Of a stretch of 22,737 bases of DNA, positions 6,267 to 11,995 are shown in pieces (the stretch's first letter is position 1; every line of letters begins with the position of its first letter). Location of the stretch: the IMG/VR virus record IMGVR_UViG_3300024433_002526; one strand, 5' to 3'. A model generated the notes under the pieces. That model worked only from the letters and a program-made list of their open reading frames with translations. It had not been told where the DNA came from and made no database searches. The position numbers and the translations under genes were made by a program. Source of the DNA: a virus.

Positions 6267-8115
6267 TCTCGTCCTTCGTCTCGTCGATGGTCATCGCCAG
6301 ATCGAGGTGGTCCTCGGTCTTGTACAGCTCTCCGCTGGTGTCCTTGCTCGGAATAGCCGAACCCTCTTCCTCGCCGCCTTCCCTCCCGAACCAGTCCTCA
6401 CGAAGGTCCTTCACGAAGAAGTGCTTCGCATCGGAAGGCTTGACCTTGCGTGACTCCATCATCTGGTTGACCCGGCCGAGCCGCGTGACCAACTCCATGA
6501 GCAATGGCCGTAGCTCGGGCCGGAGCTTCTCGAACTCTGCTCCTGGTGCTCCCGAGGGTCCTTCGGCCGGAGGCGGCGGCGGCGGAGGCAGTCCCGGACC
6601 GGCGGCATTGACATCGCCCGGCGGTGGCATCTCAGGAGGCGGCGCTGGCGGCGCACCAGGCTCGCCACCTTGTTGCTGTGGAGCACCCGGCAGGATCAAC
6701 GCGTCGATCAGCCTGTCGGACAGGTGCCCATACTGCTTGAGCACGTACCTGATCCAGATCTGCATGTCGAAGTTGACCTGTTGTCCGAGGTTGAGCAGGC
6801 GATCGATGATGTCAATGCGGATCTCGATCAGCTGCTGACGGTGCAGCTCTTCGAGGAACGAGACCGGTGCCATAGCCAGGGTGAACTGGTTGTCCGGATC
6901 TCGGGGGTCGATCCCCCTAAACGCCAGGTTCAGCTGGAGGACACGGTGAACACCAAGCAGGAAGTACCGCTGCAGCTTCTGCGGTATGCGGACGTATCGA
7001 CTGTCCTGCTGTGTGAGTCTCCGGCTGGGGTCATACGGTGTCGAGCCCTCGATGTTGTAGCCAAAGAAGCTGGGCGGGATGCGGACCGACGCGTGATACC
7101 GCGCCAGATAGTAGTGCAGGTTCGTAGCTTCATTCGCGTTGCTCGAACCCTTGAGTCGTTCGATCTTCGTCTCGCGTCCCTGCACCTGAGGGACCACGAG
7201 GTCCTCATTCGCCGTCCACGGGTTCCAGTCCTCACGGAGCTGGCCGCTGCTCGGGTCGTAGTACTTCGTCTTCTTGAGCTTCGTCGTGAAGCGCTCGACG
7301 TAGTCCGAGGTCTCCTCGTCAGTGAGGCCAGTGCAGTCGACGTAGTAGACGTCGCGGTCAGCATGGCGCTGAAGGATGTAGACGACGTCGGCGTCTTCGG
7401 CCATGCGCAACCTGCGGTACGGCCTGCGAGATGACACGAGCAACGTGGTGCCGTACATGGCCGAGAGCGATCCAAAGATCCTGAAGTGCACGATCTCCCA
7501 CGGCTGCTTGTTCGGCTCCGAGGAACCACCAGCAGTCTCGCCGAGGTAGAAGCCGAGCAGCGTTCCGGTGTCGTAGTCCTCAAACCTGCGGAACCGCTTC
7601 GGGTGGTGGAAGCGCAGCATGCTAATGCCGGTACCGGGCTCCCAGAAGAGTTCGACAGGGAAGTCGCCATATTTGCCGAGGCCTCTGCCGACCAGTGGCG
7701 CGTACTCTTCGAGCTGAGTGGTCTCGATGCACTCCTCGCAGATCTGGCGGATCTCTTCGTTGCAGTCCTCCACCCAGAGCATGCGGTTCGTTGCCGGGTC
7801 GATCTGGATTGCGTCCTCGGTATACGTGTCGAGCACGGCCGACGGGAGATCGTCCGAGTCCATGACATCGACCTCGTCGTAGATCTCCATCCTCGTCTTG
7901 CCCAGACGCATGCGCTCGCCGTAGAACGAGTACATGTTCTGGCCTTCTTCGCCAGACGCGAGCGACGGCGCGGCAGCCTTCCCCGAGGTGTCCCGTCGTC
8001 GCATGTAGGGTTTGGGCGCTCCATAGAGGACGCCTCGGATGAAGTTGTAGATACGGGTCCCAAAGCCTTGCCTGGGTCGCATCTCTTCGTTGACCACCTG
8101 CGGTGCCTGCGCCAT
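6256..8115 (-). CDS. Portal protein candidate (619 aa) immediately downstream of the large terminase. C-terminal poly-Pro/Gly tract.
   Basis: Position directly after the large terminase (4-nt spacing) and the size fit a portal. The segment RMRLGKTRMEIYDEVDVMDSDDLPSAVLDTYTEDA resembles the ERY.EYeeMD..PEIs.ALDiYAdeA region I recall from T4 gp20-type portals. The tract PGAPPAPPPEMPPPGDVNAAGPGLPPPPPPPAEGPSGAPGAE lies near the C-terminus. Confidence 0.45.
   Translation of the reverse strand: MAQAPQVVNEEMRPRQGFGTRIYNFIRGVLYGAPKPYMRRRDTSGKAAAPSLASGEEGQNMYSFYGERMRLGKTRMEIYDEVDVMDSDDLPSAVLDTYTEDAIQIDPATNRMLWVEDCNEEIRQICEECIETTQLEEYAPLVGRGLGKYGDFPVELFWEPGTGISMLRFHHPKRFRRFEDYDTGTLLGFYLGETAGGSSEPNKQPWEIVHFRIFGSLSAMYGTTLLVSSRRPYRRLRMAEDADVVYILQRHADRDVYYVDCTGLTDEETSDYVERFTTKLKKTKYYDPSSGQLREDWNPWTANEDLVVPQVQGRETKIERLKGSSNANEATNLHYYLARYHASVRIPPSFFGYNIEGSTPYDPSRRLTQQDSRYVRIPQKLQRYFLLGVHRVLQLNLAFRGIDPRDPDNQFTLAMAPVSFLEELHRQQLIEIRIDIIDRLLNLGQQVNFDMQIWIRYVLKQYGHLSDRLIDALILPGAPQQQGGEPGAPPAPPPEMPPPGDVNAAGPGLPPPPPPPAEGPSGAPGAEFEKLRPELRPLLMELVTRLGRVNQMMESRKVKPSDAKHFFVKDLREDWFGREGGEEEGSAIPSKDTSGELYKTEDHLDLAMTIDETKDENES
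6540..6700 (-). repeat. Low-complexity GC-rich tract (ggcggcggcggcggaggc...) encoding the poly-Pro/Gly/Ala segment of the portal candidate.
   Basis: Plus-strand runs of ggcgg/ggagg at ~6560-6660. The encoded peptide is GEPGAPPAPPPEMPPPGDVNAAGPGLPPPPPPPAEGPSGAPG. Confidence 0.5.
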
Positions 8116-8118
8116 CTA

Positions 8119-11100
8119 TCAACCTCCCACCAAAATTGCCGGTGCCTGCGGTAGTCCCCCGACCGGTAGCCGTTGCTGCATCTCCAACTTGTTGGCCCTC
8201 TTCCTCGGTGGGATCAGACCGTAGACTGCCCCACACAGAGCGTCGCTCACGTCCTTGGACCCACTGAGCGGCTTGAAGACCTTCTTCGCCGTTATGTCGT
8301 GCGACAGGTGCCTCAGCTCAGTTTCGAGCGGTTCGTACGGGTACGTTCTGATTATCCCGGACTCGTAGACACCCTTCAAGTTTATATACGGATCATCCGA
8401 TTCGTCGACACTCACAAAATCAGCCTCGATGCCCATCTTGTGGAGCTTCTGTACGAAGTGCCTTGACTGGTACTTGTCCAGGGAGACCATCTGGAACGTG
8501 TAATGGTTCCGGTGGAGGTACTCAACGAATTCGATGATCTTGTCGAAGTCCACTTCGCCCCGGCCGTACGGAGGCGGATCGATCCGGAATGCGAAGTCCA
8601 GGTAGGTGAGCGGCATGCCTCCCTGTGGCGGTGTCCACATGTGCACGCACGCGATTCCCACTGAGCAGCCGGTCACCGCAAGGTCGATATGCATGACGCG
8701 CCCAGCCTCTGGGTGCAGCCTCGGCCGATAGTGGTTGAGGTGTGTCTCGAACATGATGTCCTCGCGCACAGCGTCCTGAATGCGGACAGGCGAGTTCGTC
8801 GAGATCACCATGAACTGGGTCTTGAACGGGTGAACCAAGTTCTCGTCGTAGTTGTTGTATATGACTTCCGGCCTGTGGAACAACCCGCTCGCCGCAACCG
8901 TCGCACGCCCAGCGATATTGCGGATGAAGTCTTCGATGTTGTTTTCGGCGTCGGGCTTGTGCTCCAACGGGGCCGTGATCACATTGGCCTCGTCTACCTG
9001 GTCAGCCTCGTCCTCGCCCTCCACGAGAATACGAGGCTCCGCAGTGTCGTCGCCACAGAAGACCCGGAACGTCCTTCCGCTCTTGTATGTGCCCTCGGGC
9101 TGAACGTCCCATATGGCACGAGAAATTACCGCGACACCGTCCTCGTGGCCGTGCTTCGTAATGTGCTCTTCGAGGAAGTCAGTCTGGGCGCGTCGCTGCG
9201 AGAGCAGGCACATGAAGTATGGCGCGGCCGAGCCAGGGCTGGCTACGAACTGGTTGCGGAGGCGTCCTCGGATCGCGCCGTACAGCTTCTGCGCCTGACC
9301 CAGCGATTCCTCTGCATGCGCCCTGCTTCGGCCCTTAGCCGAGCGCATGAAGTTGACCTCGTCGAGAATACCGCCGATGAATGTTTCACCCAGTGCGTGA
9401 AGCTCGGTGGCGCCCTCAACGATCGACACATGGTCCGGAAGGATCAGCTCCTTGCTGCGCTCGCCACTCAGCCGAGAGAACTTCTCCACGAAGTACGGGC
9501 ACTCGTCGATGATCGCCTGGATACGCGAGTGCATGTCGCCGGTCTTGTACTTGAAGATATTGAAGATGCCGTACCGGATGCTCGATCCACGCATCAGACC
9601 AAAGAATCCCTGTGGGTCCCTCAGCAACGAGAGTAGATAGATCCGGTACCCGGCCATGATCGTAGCCAGGGTGGTGTTATGTGTGACTACACAATGGTCT
9701 GTCAGATAGAGACCACCTGGCGCGGACGTTGAGATGCACTGGGTCTCTTCCGCACCGGAGTATTCAACTGATACAATGGCCCTACTTGGAGCGTATCGAG
9801 CCCTCGGCCTGTAGTGGTTCTTCTTTCTAGTGAGCTGGAATGGGCAGAGCCATGATGGGAGTGCCAGCCTCAGCCTATACCGATCTCGACCGGCCGTAGG
9901 ACCAACAAGATATCTGCAAACACCGCCAAGACTTTCGACCAGGAAACGCACATCGGCAGCAAGACGTGGCGACGCAGTCGAATACTCCAGCTTGTTGTTG
10001 CTGTGCTCAACAGAACCGTTTTCAGTATCCATGAGACCCTGCAACAAATACGCCCGTTGCTGTACGCTGCCATAGAGGTAGTCCTTCGGTACTCGCTTCT
10101 CGTGCGCTGGGTGGCACATGTCGAGTGCCTTGAGGGCTTGCATCAACGGATTAGACTTACCACCGCGCGTGCCAGAGGAGAGCGAGTAAGTGTACCGGCC
10201 TTTGTGGTTTGCCTGAACACCAGGAGGTAAGAGAGCCGCCACCCAATGCAGAAGTTCCCTATCAGAGGTCGTCAATATTGGCGTGTTCTGCGTGAGACCG
10301 CCATTACCGATCAACACACCCGCCAGGTATGGGTGAAGCAGGAGATGTCGTTCCGACCACTGTATCGGGTCAGCCACTGGAACGAACCACTTATTCGAGC
10401 CGTCCCTATAGTGTAGGTCCGACGAAAGCTCCCGAAGAGTCTTCGTTCTCAGGGGTCGCCTATAGTGCTTGTCAGACTTCGTGAAGACAGACCAGAGATG
10501 CTCCGCGCCGCACCGAACCACCTGTCCATCAGAGAACGTCACAGTGTAGACGTCACGAGCACCCTGTGGGTAGACACCGGTCACCGGGTAGAAGTAGCCA
10601 TCCCTGCCAGCTACCAGATCATTGGTAGTGATGTCTCCCATCTTCTTCAGGCCGTCGGAAGTGATCAGTTCTGAGGTCAGTGGTTGGTCTTTGCCCCACC
10701 TTGTGGAGCCCGTGAGGACGACCTCGAAGACTCGGTTCTTCGGGTTGAGCAGCCAGCACGCATCCCGGAAGTTGACTGGGTAGAGACCCTCACCGAAGCG
10801 GCCCGCGTAGTATGGGTCAGTGAGAAACTGGCGTGGTGTGACCGGGATGTCCTTGTAGTCCTGTGTGACAATCCCAGCCGCAGTCTCGCTCCAGCCATCA
10901 AGCATCAGCTCGTCAACGATACGAGGAATCGAGTCGCGGAGGTGCTGGAAGTCTTCTGCCCTGACAAGGTTCGCAACCTCGTCGAAGGATGAATAGACCT
11001 TCAGAATCTCTCTGCGGAGATCCGGGTCGAGACCGGCGACAAACTCGTCGTCACCGTTTATGTGAGCCGTCAGTGCCAGCTGGAGGAGATTTCTCTTCTT

Positions 11101-11136
11101 CCCCACTACCGGCCTGTCGACCTCGGGCCTTAACAT
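8119..11136 (-). CDS. terL: Terminase large subunit (ATPase + RNase H-like nuclease) interrupted by an intein in the Walker A P-loop. 1005-aa precursor.
   Basis: N-extein ends ...VVLTGSTRWGK and the C-extein begins TTLATIMAGYRIY (compare T4 gp17 SRQLGKTTVVAIFLA). Splicing would restore GSTRWGKT. Walker B is GGILDEVNFM. Nuclease motifs are VMHIDLAVTGCS ... SLDKYQSRH. ATG at 11136 is preceded by TGGAG 7 nt upstream. Confidence 0.85.
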   Translation of the reverse strand: MLRPEVDRPVVGKKRNLLQLALTAHINGDDEFVAGLDPDLRREILKVYSSFDEVANLVRAEDFQHLRDSIPRIVDELMLDGWSETAAGIVTQDYKDIPVTPRQFLTDPYYAGRFGEGLYPVNFRDACWLLNPKNRVFEVVLTGSTRWGKDQPLTSELITSDGLKKMGDITTNDLVAGRDGYFYPVTGVYPQGARDVYTVTFSDGQVVRCGAEHLWSVFTKSDKHYRRPLRTKTLRELSSDLHYRDGSNKWFVPVADPIQWSERHLLLHPYLAGVLIGNGGLTQNTPILTTSDRELLHWVAALLPPGVQANHKGRYTYSLSSGTRGGKSNPLMQALKALDMCHPAHEKRVPKDYLYGSVQQRAYLLQGLMDTENGSVEHSNNKLEYSTASPRLAADVRFLVESLGGVCRYLVGPTAGRDRYRLRLALPSWLCPFQLTRKKNHYRPRARYAPSRAIVSVEYSGAEETQCISTSAPGGLYLTDHCVVTHNTTLATIMAGYRIYLLSLLRDPQGFFGLMRGSSIRYGIFNIFKYKTGDMHSRIQAIIDECPYFVEKFSRLSGERSKELILPDHVSIVEGATELHALGETFIGGILDEVNFMRSAKGRSRAHAEESLGQAQKLYGAIRGRLRNQFVASPGSAAPYFMCLLSQRRAQTDFLEEHITKHGHEDGVAVISRAIWDVQPEGTYKSGRTFRVFCGDDTAEPRILVEGEDEADQVDEANVITAPLEHKPDAENNIEDFIRNIAGRATVAASGLFHRPEVIYNNYDENLVHPFKTQFMVISTNSPVRIQDAVREDIMFETHLNHYRPRLHPEAGRVMHIDLAVTGCSVGIACVHMWTPPQGGMPLTYLDFAFRIDPPPYGRGEVDFDKIIEFVEYLHRNHYTFQMVSLDKYQSRHFVQKLHKMGIEADFVSVDESDDPYINLKGVYESGIIRTYPYEPLETELRHLSHDITAKKVFKPLSGSKDVSDALCGAVYGLIPPRKRANKLEMQQRLPVGGLPQAPAILVGG
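9676..10689 (-). mobile_element. Intein (338 aa, residues 150-487 of the terminase precursor) with an embedded LAGLIDADG homing endonuclease. Class-3-like (Trp-Cys-Thr triad) with a non-nucleophilic Asp as residue 1.
   Basis: Block A is DQPLTSELITSDGLKKMGDI, and its DG sits at positions 12-13 as in Sce VMA CFAKGTNVLMADG. Block B is GQVVRCGAEHLW with Trp at B:12. LAGLIDADG motifs are LAGVLIGNGGL (10297..10326) and LLQGLMDTENGS (~10012..10044). Block F has Cys at F:4 (ETQC) and block G is HCVVTHN with Thr at G:5, followed by +1 Thr. I verified the junction codons by hand: K149/D150 at 10692..10687 and H486/N487/T488 at 9681..9673. Confidence 0.7.
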
Positions 11137-11995
11137 TGATCTGCTCCACTGCTACTTCCCGCTCGACCTTCGACGGTATGTCCGGCCCGTTCTCAGGGCC
11201 GCCGGACAGGAATCCCTGCATGGCTTGGGTGAACTCACTGACCGAAGCGGTCAGGTGATGCCTCCGCTGTTCAACCTGCCTCCGCGCCTCGGTGTCGGTG
11301 CTGTCACCAGACTCGATGGTGCCAGCTGCTACGAAACCCATGCGCACGGTACCGCCGTCACCTTTGGGCGGCTTGGGCGTCGCCTTCTCCACAACCTCAG
11401 CAAGTAATCGTATCGCGTTGGTCGCGTCCTTGATGTGGGCATTGGCGTGCCCCATGAAGTCCCACAGATCGTCGTAGTTGAGTTCCGATGCGTCAGCCAG
11501 CTCGAACATCCTGCGTGACGCTACAGCGCTTGCCTCCATGATCGGACCGATCCTGTGCATCTGGTACGTCAGCAGCATATTCGCCGCCGCACGCAGCAAC
11601 GAAGGGTCCGCGCTGTCGATCTCTATCTGCTGGTTACCGTCGAACCAATCAGGCCAGCGTCCGTTCGTCATGCGGTACATGTACGCACGGTAGATCTGAT
11701 CCCCAGTGACCCGCTTATCGAACGGGATGAAGAACGACTGGCCGGGATACATCTTGTCGTACTCACGCAGCGTCGTCTCGTGATCCTCGCTCAGGTGCTT
11801 CTCGAATTCAGCTATGCCGTTGAGGTGTTTGTGGCACAGCCAGCAGGTACGCACACCGAGCTGCTTCAAGATCTTGGCATCGGGCTGCTTCCTCTTCTTC
11901 GCCTTCTGCTCAAACCAAAGCTCACGCCGCGTTGCCGCCTTCTTCTTGGCAGCCTTCTTCTTCTTCTTGGTTGCAGCCTTCTTCATCTTAGCCAT
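11051..11995 (-). CDS. Lys-rich protein with a C2H2-type zinc finger (314 aa). Candidate terminase small subunit by position.
   Basis: MAKMKKAATKKKKKAAKKKAATRR N-terminus. The finger CWLCHKHLNGIAEFEKHLSEDH has C-x2-C-x12-H-x4-H spacing. The gene lies immediately upstream of terL, and its last 28 codons overlap the terL ATG at 11136. Confidence 0.45.
   Translation of the reverse strand: MAKMKKAATKKKKKAAKKKAATRRELWFEQKAKKRKQPDAKILKQLGVRTCWLCHKHLNGIAEFEKHLSEDHETTLREYDKMYPGQSFFIPFDKRVTGDQIYRAYMYRMTNGRWPDWFDGNQQIEIDSADPSLLRAAANMLLTYQMHRIGPIMEASAVASRRMFELADASELNYDDLWDFMGHANAHIKDATNAIRLLAEVVEKATPKPPKGDGGTVRMGFVAAGTIESGDSTDTEARRQVEQRRHHLTASVSEFTQAMQGFLSGGPENGPDIPSKVEREVAVEQINVKARGRQAGSGEEEKSPPAGTDGSHKR

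Follow-up and report, generated by a model that had tools for sequence, protein, structure and literature searches.

We analysed a 22,737-nucleotide (nt) stretch of viral DNA (IMG/VR record IMGVR_UViG_3300024433_002526; hereafter the window), and found that its gene for the large terminase (TerL) is interrupted, inside the Walker A loop of the encoded ATPase, by an insert of 338 amino acids that, judged by its sequence, is a class 3 intein lying between the Lys and the Thr of the loop. The explanation we favour, with a probability of nearly nine in ten, is that the insert is a class 3 intein that is mobile and carries a LAGLIDADG endonuclease in frame, that it was acquired recently by homing, and that the endonuclease of this copy is probably without double-strand cleavage activity. 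The TerL precursor open reading frame (ORF; 8119..11136; this and all other features of the gene are on the minus strand) encodes 1005 amino acids. It is composed of an N-extein (amino acids 1-149, 10690..11136), whose last seven residues, GSTRWGK, begin the Walker A motif; the intein (Asp150-Asn487, 1014 bp, 9676..10689), in which a LAGLIDADG domain is inserted into a HINT splicing domain; and a C-extein (8119..9675) that opens with TTLATIM and whose first residue, Thr488, is both the predicted +1 nucleophile and the Walker A Thr. The frame runs through the intein without stops or frameshifts. A first-pass annotation, made from the letters of the DNA, had placed the insert at exactly these coordinates; its residue numbers (Asp150, Trp215, Cys467, Thr485 and Asn487) hold, and the two LAGLIDADG motifs that it had listed, LAGVLIGNGGL and LLQGLMDTENGS, are present.

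The boundaries of the insert are given by alleles that lack it. Using the conceptually spliced extein of 667 amino acids as the query, we found a protein (P0183, 657 amino acids) that has no insert and is 100% identical to the extein over 99% of the query. It is encoded by two contigs, L004 (47.5 kb) and L005, both syntenic with the window and 98-99% identical to it in DNA over about 20 kb; the single large difference is the 1014-bp insert. At the junction these alleles, and another intein-less one (P0185, on contig L007), read LTGSTRWGK-TTLA, continuing in the P0183 contigs as LTGSTRWGK-TTLATIL, and the empty site in the DNA of L004 has GGCTCAACTCGTTGGGGCAAG before the insertion point and ACCACCCTGGCTACGATCCTG after it. 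Since the intein-less alleles join GSTRWGK straight to TTLAT, the boundaries are fixed at Asp150 and Asn487, and excision regenerates GKT, as had been predicted. A further contig from an independent sample (L006, protein P0184) carries the same intein, also beginning with Asp, at the same position of an otherwise intact and syntenic genome.

More distant TerLs that share the LTGS[TI]RWGK loop show the same kind of polymorphism. An intein is found at the P-loop site in three orthologues (P0184, P0193 and P0043), ten have none (P0185, P0186-P0189, P0191, P0192 and P0195-P0197), and one (P0190) has an intein at another site. This distribution bears on whether the segment might be a native accessory domain of the terminase family, as the continuous ORF and the in-frame position of the insert would allow. 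However, most orthologues are without the segment, including one with a 100% identical extein; the closest relatives of the insert are found in unrelated P-loop proteins (PhoH-like, SNF2, DnaB and AAA_30); and its codon usage is foreign to the gene. Because the distribution among TerL orthologues is sporadic and empty sites exist, we exclude a native domain, to which we leave a negligible probability.

The insert has the general features of an intein, namely blocks A, B, F and G, a His at position 10 of block B (B:10), a C-terminal His-Asn pair and a nucleophilic +1 residue. In intein numbering, block A (DQPLTSELITSDG, 10651..10689) starts with Asp1 (codon GAC) and has Asp-Gly at positions 12-13, with a conserved Gly13; the first-pass annotation had argued that this register holds only if Asp150 is residue 1, and the empty alleles confirm that boundary. 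The core of block B (AEHLW, residues 62-66, 10492..10506) contains His64 (B:10) and Trp66 (B:12). The core of block F (ETQCIS, 9730..9747) contains Cys318 (F:4, codon TGC at 9736..9738), which is predicted to serve as the class 3 nucleophile, and block G (CVVTHN/T, 9673..9693) contains Thr336 (G:5), His337 and Asn338, followed by Thr+1. The hallmarks of class 3 are a non-nucleophilic residue 1 (other than Cys, Ser or Thr) that co-varies with a Trp-Cys-Thr triad and with Thr or Ser at +1 (Tori et al. 2010, PMC2807308), and class 3 inteins are reported to be monophyletic. The insert has a non-nucleophilic residue 1, the complete triad, Thr at +1 and homology to verified class 3 inteins.

Searching with the intein gave matches to 16,259 cluster representatives at E<=0.001, of which 4,248 reach E<=1e-30, well outside what chance would produce. 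From the best matches and the first search we assembled a census of 183 near-full-length intein copies, aligned with MAFFT. Every one of the 183 relatives has His B:10, Trp B:12 and Cys F:4; Thr G:5 and Asn G:7 are each found in 182 and His G:6 in 179, bearing out the class 3 triad proposed earlier; the +1 residue is Thr in 165 copies and Ser in 15. Block A is conserved at Gly13 (180 copies), Gln2 (138), Pro3 (142) and Leu4 (132), with a variable residue 1, and the residue before the intein is Lys in 154/183, at P-loop sites of PhoH-like, SNF2, DnaB, AAA_30 and terminase proteins; the AQPLD consensus and the block A register put residue 1 right after the P-loop Lys in these 154. Several relatives (P0034, P0035, P0036, P0040 and others) carry two to four copies of the same class 3 intein family per polypeptide; some of the copies in multi-intein proteins are at non-P-loop sites and have Pro1 or Ser1, and P0061 has two copies side by side.

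The same alignment speaks to the proposal that the insert is a standard class 1 intein, whose true residue 1 would be a nearby Ser or Cys such as Ser155, and whose DQPLT would belong to the N-extein. Ser155 and Thr154 do lie near the proposed junction. However, a start at Ser155 would leave DQPLT within the P-loop, whereas the empty alleles with an identical extein link K149 directly to T488. Nor does this proposal agree with the block A register across the relatives, with the Cys at F:4, where a class 1 intein has Asp, or with the Trp at B:12. The comparison with intein-less terL homologues, which the first-pass annotation had named as a check, thus upholds insertion between the Lys and Thr of GKT and rules out both a start at Ser155 and a native domain; we see hardly any chance for class 1.

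Homology to characterized inteins is significant along the whole insert. The experimentally characterized intein of mycobacteriophage Bethlehem, the class 3 prototype, aligns with it over its full length (BLASTP, E 5e-16, 26% identity), so that His64, Trp66, Cys318, Thr336 and Asn338 correspond to His65, Trp67, Cys320, Thr339 and Asn341 of the Bethlehem intein, residues whose functions are described in PMC2807308. The solved class 3 DnaB inteins 6rix and 6bs8 match the insert both by sequence (phmmer) and by fold. An AlphaFold model of the intein, built on a 20-sequence alignment (predicted local distance difference test, pLDDT, 90; predicted template modelling score, pTM, 0.89), has PI-SceI as its best match in the Protein Data Bank (PDB), with a template modelling (TM) score of 0.74, and also matches the structures of TliVMA, gp41-1 and DnaB inteins, as expected of a HINT fold. 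Its LAGLIDADG part matches PI-SceI, PI-PfuI and I-DmoI and is predicted to form a pseudo-dimeric alpha-beta-beta-alpha-beta-beta-alpha fold with two LAGLIDADG helices. In scans of Pfam and NCBIfam, matches were limited to LAGLIDADG_3 (Pfam, E 4e-7) and an intein-containing DnaB model. The block assignments of the first-pass annotation stand; PF14528, which it had given as the Hint domain, is LAGLIDADG_3.

Based on the chemistry of its family, we propose that Cys318, activated by His64 and Trp66 of block B, would attack the Lys149-Asp150 bond, giving a thioester-branched intermediate. The N-extein would then be transferred to the side chain of Thr488, and cyclisation of Asn487 would free the intein, with an O-to-N shift yielding GSTRWGKTTLATIM. 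The P-loop would be complete only after splicing, and packaging is thus predicted to depend on it.

The Asp at residue 1, which the first-pass annotation had singled out as noteworthy, turned out to be rare (about 2%) and already precedented. In our own census, from which rather than from the literature this distribution is drawn, residue 1 (n=183) is Ala in 134 copies, Pro in 14, Ser in 10, Gly in 8, Asp in 4, Phe in 4, Glu in 3 and Cys in 2, with Leu, Gln, Tyr and Met once each. The four other Asp1 inteins occur in four unrelated hosts. The closest orthologous inteins at the same site, in P0043 and P0193, begin with Ala, so the Asp codon (GAC) is one transversion from an ancestral Ala codon (GCC). 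By definition, a class 3 intein may begin with any residue that is not a nucleophile (PMC2807308). Since residue 1 does not serve as a nucleophile, Asp1 predicts no new chemistry and may be seen as a tolerated variant at a position without a chemical part in splicing. We considered the Asp1 side chain as a catalytic participant and rejected it; from its position it would attack the peptide bond on its own C-terminal side rather than the one between Lys149 and Asp150, and residue 1 is freely variable. Asp or Glu at residue 1 co-occurs with Asn in LAGLIDADG motif 1, the Asn being found in 4/6 Asp1 or Glu1 copies vs 23/183 overall; relatives bearing both include P0024, P0105, P0141 and P0149, and the window intein also has both.

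The endonuclease had been described as apparently intact, which is true of its open reading frame and predicted fold, but not of its catalytic acid positions. Motif 1 (LAGVLIGNGG, intein residues 122-131, 10297..10326) has Asn129 (AAT at 10303..10305) at the catalytic position, and motif 2 (LLQGLMDTENGS, residues 215-226, 10012..10047) has Glu223-Asn224 (GAA AAC at 10018..10023) instead of a single Asp; neither motif of the window intein closes with the acid and Gly expected of LAGLIDADG enzymes. Among the 183 relatives, 153 have Asp in the acidic column of motif 1, 23 have Asn and 6 have Glu; in that of motif 2, 178 have Asp, and the column inserted in the window copy is empty in all 183. The intein DNA of L006 is 99% identical to that of the window, with 8 residue differences and one insertion; the two copies share the motif 1 Asn, and a 3-nt AAA insertion turns GAC-GGT (Asp-Gly) of L006 into GAA-AAC-GGT (Glu-Asn-Gly) in the window. 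In single-chain I-CreI and I-MsoI, one half-site Asp-to-Asn change abolishes double-strand cleavage, and the D22N single-chain I-MsoI retains nicking only (PMC2655683); in another class 3 intein, endonuclease activity was knocked out by mutation of the two corresponding Asp residues (PMC3196547). Given Asn129 at the first catalytic position and the 3-nt insertion in the codon of the second, we conclude with moderate confidence that the window copy has probably lost double-strand cleavage.

The differences between the inteins of the window and L006, about 18 substitutions and the 3-nt insertion, all fall between nt 525 and 1008 of the intein, in its 3' half (9676..10165), and nt 1-524 (10166..10689) are identical. 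This suggests that the intein contains a recombination breakpoint or is unevenly constrained. We also considered an antisense or out-of-frame endonuclease ORF of the type seen in actinophage inteins, and rejected it, as the intein is overlapped only by short unsupported ORFs of 67-81 amino acids and the LAGLIDADG domain is in frame.

Composition and flanking sequence both point to recent acquisition. At 54.9%, the intein has the lowest GC content of any 1014-nt stretch of the window, the others having at least 56.1%, and its GC content at third codon positions (GC3) is 59.8% vs 76.0% for the extein. Over the 1279 nt upstream of the insertion point, the window and L004 differ only at -1, -10, -12, -13 and -16. 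These five differences (5' flank, 10690..10705) are all synonymous, in Ser, Thr, Arg and Lys codons (TCC/TCA, ACA/ACT, AGG/CGT and AAA/AAG, window/L004), and probably mark a co-conversion tract. Downstream, where 1500 nt were compared, a single difference at +19 (ATG vs CTG, Met vs Leu; 3' flank, 9657..9675) is the sole mismatch in the first 1328 nt, and the rest has one more, at +1329. Six substitutions are thus confined to 35 of about 2600 nt, with a probability of about 6e-12 under a uniform expectation. The AGG..AAA flank accompanies the intein in L006 and in a distant orthologue (L008), and CGN..AAG is found in the empty L004, L005 and L007. The simplest reading of this cluster is that a short donor flank was copied by homing-type gene conversion. 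The element would thus have been gained recently, in a phage lineage that still circulates without it.

Several observations weigh against the explanation favoured here. The Pfam splicing-domain profiles (Intein_splicing and Hom_end_hint) gave no significant match to the insert, only Hom_end_hint appearing, at E 0.25, and the class assignment is therefore based on homology to class 3 inteins; since direct comparison with solved and with assayed inteins does give significant homology, we read the failure of the profiles as a limit of their sensitivity for class 3. In the Bethlehem intein, changing Pro1 to Ala, Ser or Cys lowered splicing (PMC2807308), so residue 1 is not entirely neutral and a quantitative effect of Asp1 is possible; we found no report of Asp1 having been assayed in any class 3 intein, and we infer the splicing competence of the window intein from its family. 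As to the endonuclease, the 3-nt insertion is known from one assembly and may be an assembly error, and the Asn in motif 1, recurring as it does in 23/183 relatives, could be functional in this intein family, for example in a nickase. The junction cluster, finally, could represent target-site immunity mutations in the empty allele; co-conversion and immunity mutations would each imply endonuclease-driven dynamics in the recent past.

The concern over residue 1 leads to the reading that the window copy is dead for splicing, through Asp1 or through changes near block F, and that its genome is defective or helper-dependent. The rarity of Asp1 (4/183), the lowered splicing of residue 1 mutants of the prototype, and the 8 residues and one insertion that separate the window copy from L006 would all be compatible with such a loss, and a class 3-like intein pseudogene has been documented. 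That pseudogene, however, is without His B:10 and Cys F:4 (PMC3196547), whereas all catalytic residues are intact in the window intein, and its ORF has neither stops nor frameshifts. Moreover, the same Asp1 intein is present in the independent sample L006, in an otherwise intact syntenic genome, and Asp1 recurs in four unrelated hosts. We consider a splicing-dead copy very unlikely.

Another doubt concerns the state of the endonuclease, which might still be active in homing, either by nicking or with Glu223 as a metal ligand, and might now be spreading the intein; this would replace only the part of our explanation that invokes a decaying endonuclease. It would account for presence and absence of the intein among genomes that are 98-99% identical, and for the tight cluster of substitutions at the junction. 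Glutamate is the catalytic acid in some LAGLIDADG enzymes, for example E117 of I-DmoI. Motif 1 Asn is found in 13% of relatives, and an enzyme with the corresponding change, D22N single-chain I-MsoI, still nicks; in the tested enzymes, however, one Asp-to-Asn change abolishes double-strand cleavage (PMC2655683), and the residue inserted in motif 2 is unique vs the 183 relatives and absent from the sister copy in L006. We regard continued activity as possible but doubtful. A more specific version, in which the motif 1 Asn variant marks natural nicking endonucleases that still drive homing and the 35-bp tract is the footprint of nick-initiated short co-conversion, seems to us unlikely.

The host gene itself was identified by comparison with annotated terminases. 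In tblastn searches the TerL precursor matches phage terminases at 28-31% identity (E down to 1e-70); it aligns over 97% of its length with those of the Rhodobacter phages RcTiptonus, RcDurkin and RcKickapoo, and its C-terminal half also matches those of Vibrio SIO-2-like (VA-RY-4) and Stenotrophomonas DLP5-like phages. Walker B ILDE, Asp residues of the nuclease domain, HIDLA and GSKDVSDA are invariant across the alignment, and conceptual excision restores GSTRWGKT, as required of a TerL ATPase. The spliced sequence gave no match to the Pfam terminase models in the library used and a weak one to PHROG phrog_2 (E 0.005), which indicates that this TerL family is poorly covered by profile libraries. 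Together with the adjacent portal gene, these alignments identify the ORF at 8119..11136 as a large terminase gene of a phage. The window TerL had no exact match in an assembly index. The putative terminase ATG at 11136 overlaps the preceding ORF (314 amino acids, 11051..11995) by 86 nt, and in the related contigs L004 and L007 gene callers placed the start at a GTG 10 codons further downstream, so that the true TerL start may differ.

The surrounding genes form a phage-type array, all on the minus strand. Directly downstream of the TerL ORF is the gene for a T4-like portal (Portal_T4, 6256..8115). Other products of the window are a family A DNA polymerase, a RecA-like protein, a 5'-3' exonuclease, proteins resembling SbcD, SbcC and HU, a holin-like protein and a PDDEXK nuclease. 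Two further genes have unexpected matches. In an ORF of 177 amino acids (3551..4084, minus strand), residues 112-145 match the last ~31 positions of Pfam NRDD (E 7.5e-6), a glycyl-radical C-terminal piece (TRIVGYYSQMHNWNGSKKAE) with no NrdD body close by. The ORF could be what is left of a gene, or it could encode a glycyl-radical 'spare part' protein that stands alone. In the structural-gene region, a large protein whose gene runs off the 5' end (2..2407, minus strand; 895 amino acids in L004, 17686-20373) has matches to the shoulder domain of the major vault protein (PF11978, E 9.5e-18) and to a vault repeat (PF17795), which is unusual for a phage gene.

For annotation, the result means that the gene should be described as encoding a large terminase that contains an intein and has 667 amino acids in its mature form, and the same description applies to unannotated relatives such as the terminases of the Rhodobacter RcTiptonus group. 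The near-identical contigs with and without the intein make a clean natural pair, with a defined empty site and a short co-conversion-like tract, from an uncultured phage lineage of a non-actinobacterial type. L006 and the window, in turn, present the endonuclease at two stages of active-site change, usable for studying the cycle of gain, decay and loss in uncultured phages. What is known of splicing chemistry is unchanged, as Asp1 fits the existing definition of class 3.

Neither class 3 membership nor the Lys/Thr site is new, and the window intein is unremarkable within a known family of very large size. The view of the first-pass annotation that class 3 is a small class is not supported by comparison with known systems, nor is the setting rare, as hundreds of class 3 inteins with LAGLIDADG domains are known from phage terminases. 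A 2025 survey of actinophages (PhagesDB) lists 287 class 3 inteins, of which most are in TerL and Cas4 and most have canonical LAGLIDADG domains (bioRxiv 10.1101/2025.01.02.630785), and the prototype itself resides in a terminase. The Bethlehem intein, known as 'MP-Be DnaB' in Tori et al. 2010 (PMC2807308) and as TerL1-c in Kelley et al. 2016 (PMC5050341), is active in splicing, and the intein-less TerL of phage Solon is a substrate for cleavage by its endonuclease (PMC5050341). We located this 341-residue intein, with junctions VSQDQ/P...N/TKNTF, in gp11 of Bethlehem, encoded immediately upstream of the portal gene. Gp11 (L010 7260..9971, AY500153), which carries the prototype published as a 'DnaB' intein, is a large terminase annotated as 'hypothetical protein'; we also sought the intein in the right half of the Bethlehem genome and did not find it there, the DnaB-like gp62 (273 amino acids) being without one. 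The Bethlehem and window inteins both belong to class 3, have about 340 residues and interrupt the large terminase of a phage; each contains a LAGLIDADG domain in frame, begins with a residue that is not a nucleophile and is followed by Thr+1. They differ in that the Bethlehem intein has Pro1, lies outside the P-loop (after VSQDQ) and keeps both LAGLIDADG acids (LGDG and DSDG), whereas the window intein has Asp1, occupies the Lys/Thr site of the P-loop and is altered at both acid positions.

The Lys/Thr site is the classic P-loop intein site (Kelley et al., PMC5050341; Tori et al., PMC2807308) and is that of TerL1-a in Kelley et al. TerL1-a and the window intein share the insertion point, between the invariant Lys and Thr of Walker A, a likeness that covers the site only; the terminase of the window belongs to a different, poorly annotated TerL family without a Pfam terminase match in the library used. 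The closest match from cultured phages is the terminase of RcTiptonus, RcDurkin, RcKickapoo and RcMenchie, which has an intein at the same Lys/Thr site. This intein resembles that of the window in AEHLW, the block F Cys and VTHN/T, and differs in having Arg1 and in keeping LGDG and DTDG, with about 28% overall identity. In RcTiptonus (L001, MW677527.1) it is an unannotated class 3-type intein (GGGK/RLAVDT...VTHN/TT) in gene 25, a protein of 1046 amino acids named 'terminase' in GenBank. The mycobacterial DnaB mini-inteins (MchDnaB1, 6rix/6riy; Msm DnaBi1, 6bs8) share with the window intein the splicing-domain family, the Trp-Cys-Thr triad and a site after the GK of the P-loop, and are 27-28% identical to it over the N-terminal ~65 residues; unlike it, they have no endonuclease, begin with Ala and reside in a bacterial helicase. 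PI-SceI (the VMA1 intein, 1ef0/1vde), although the best fold match for the combined HINT and LAGLIDADG architecture, belongs to class 1 (Cys1, Cys+1), has an additional DNA-recognition region and is 16-19% identical to the window intein.

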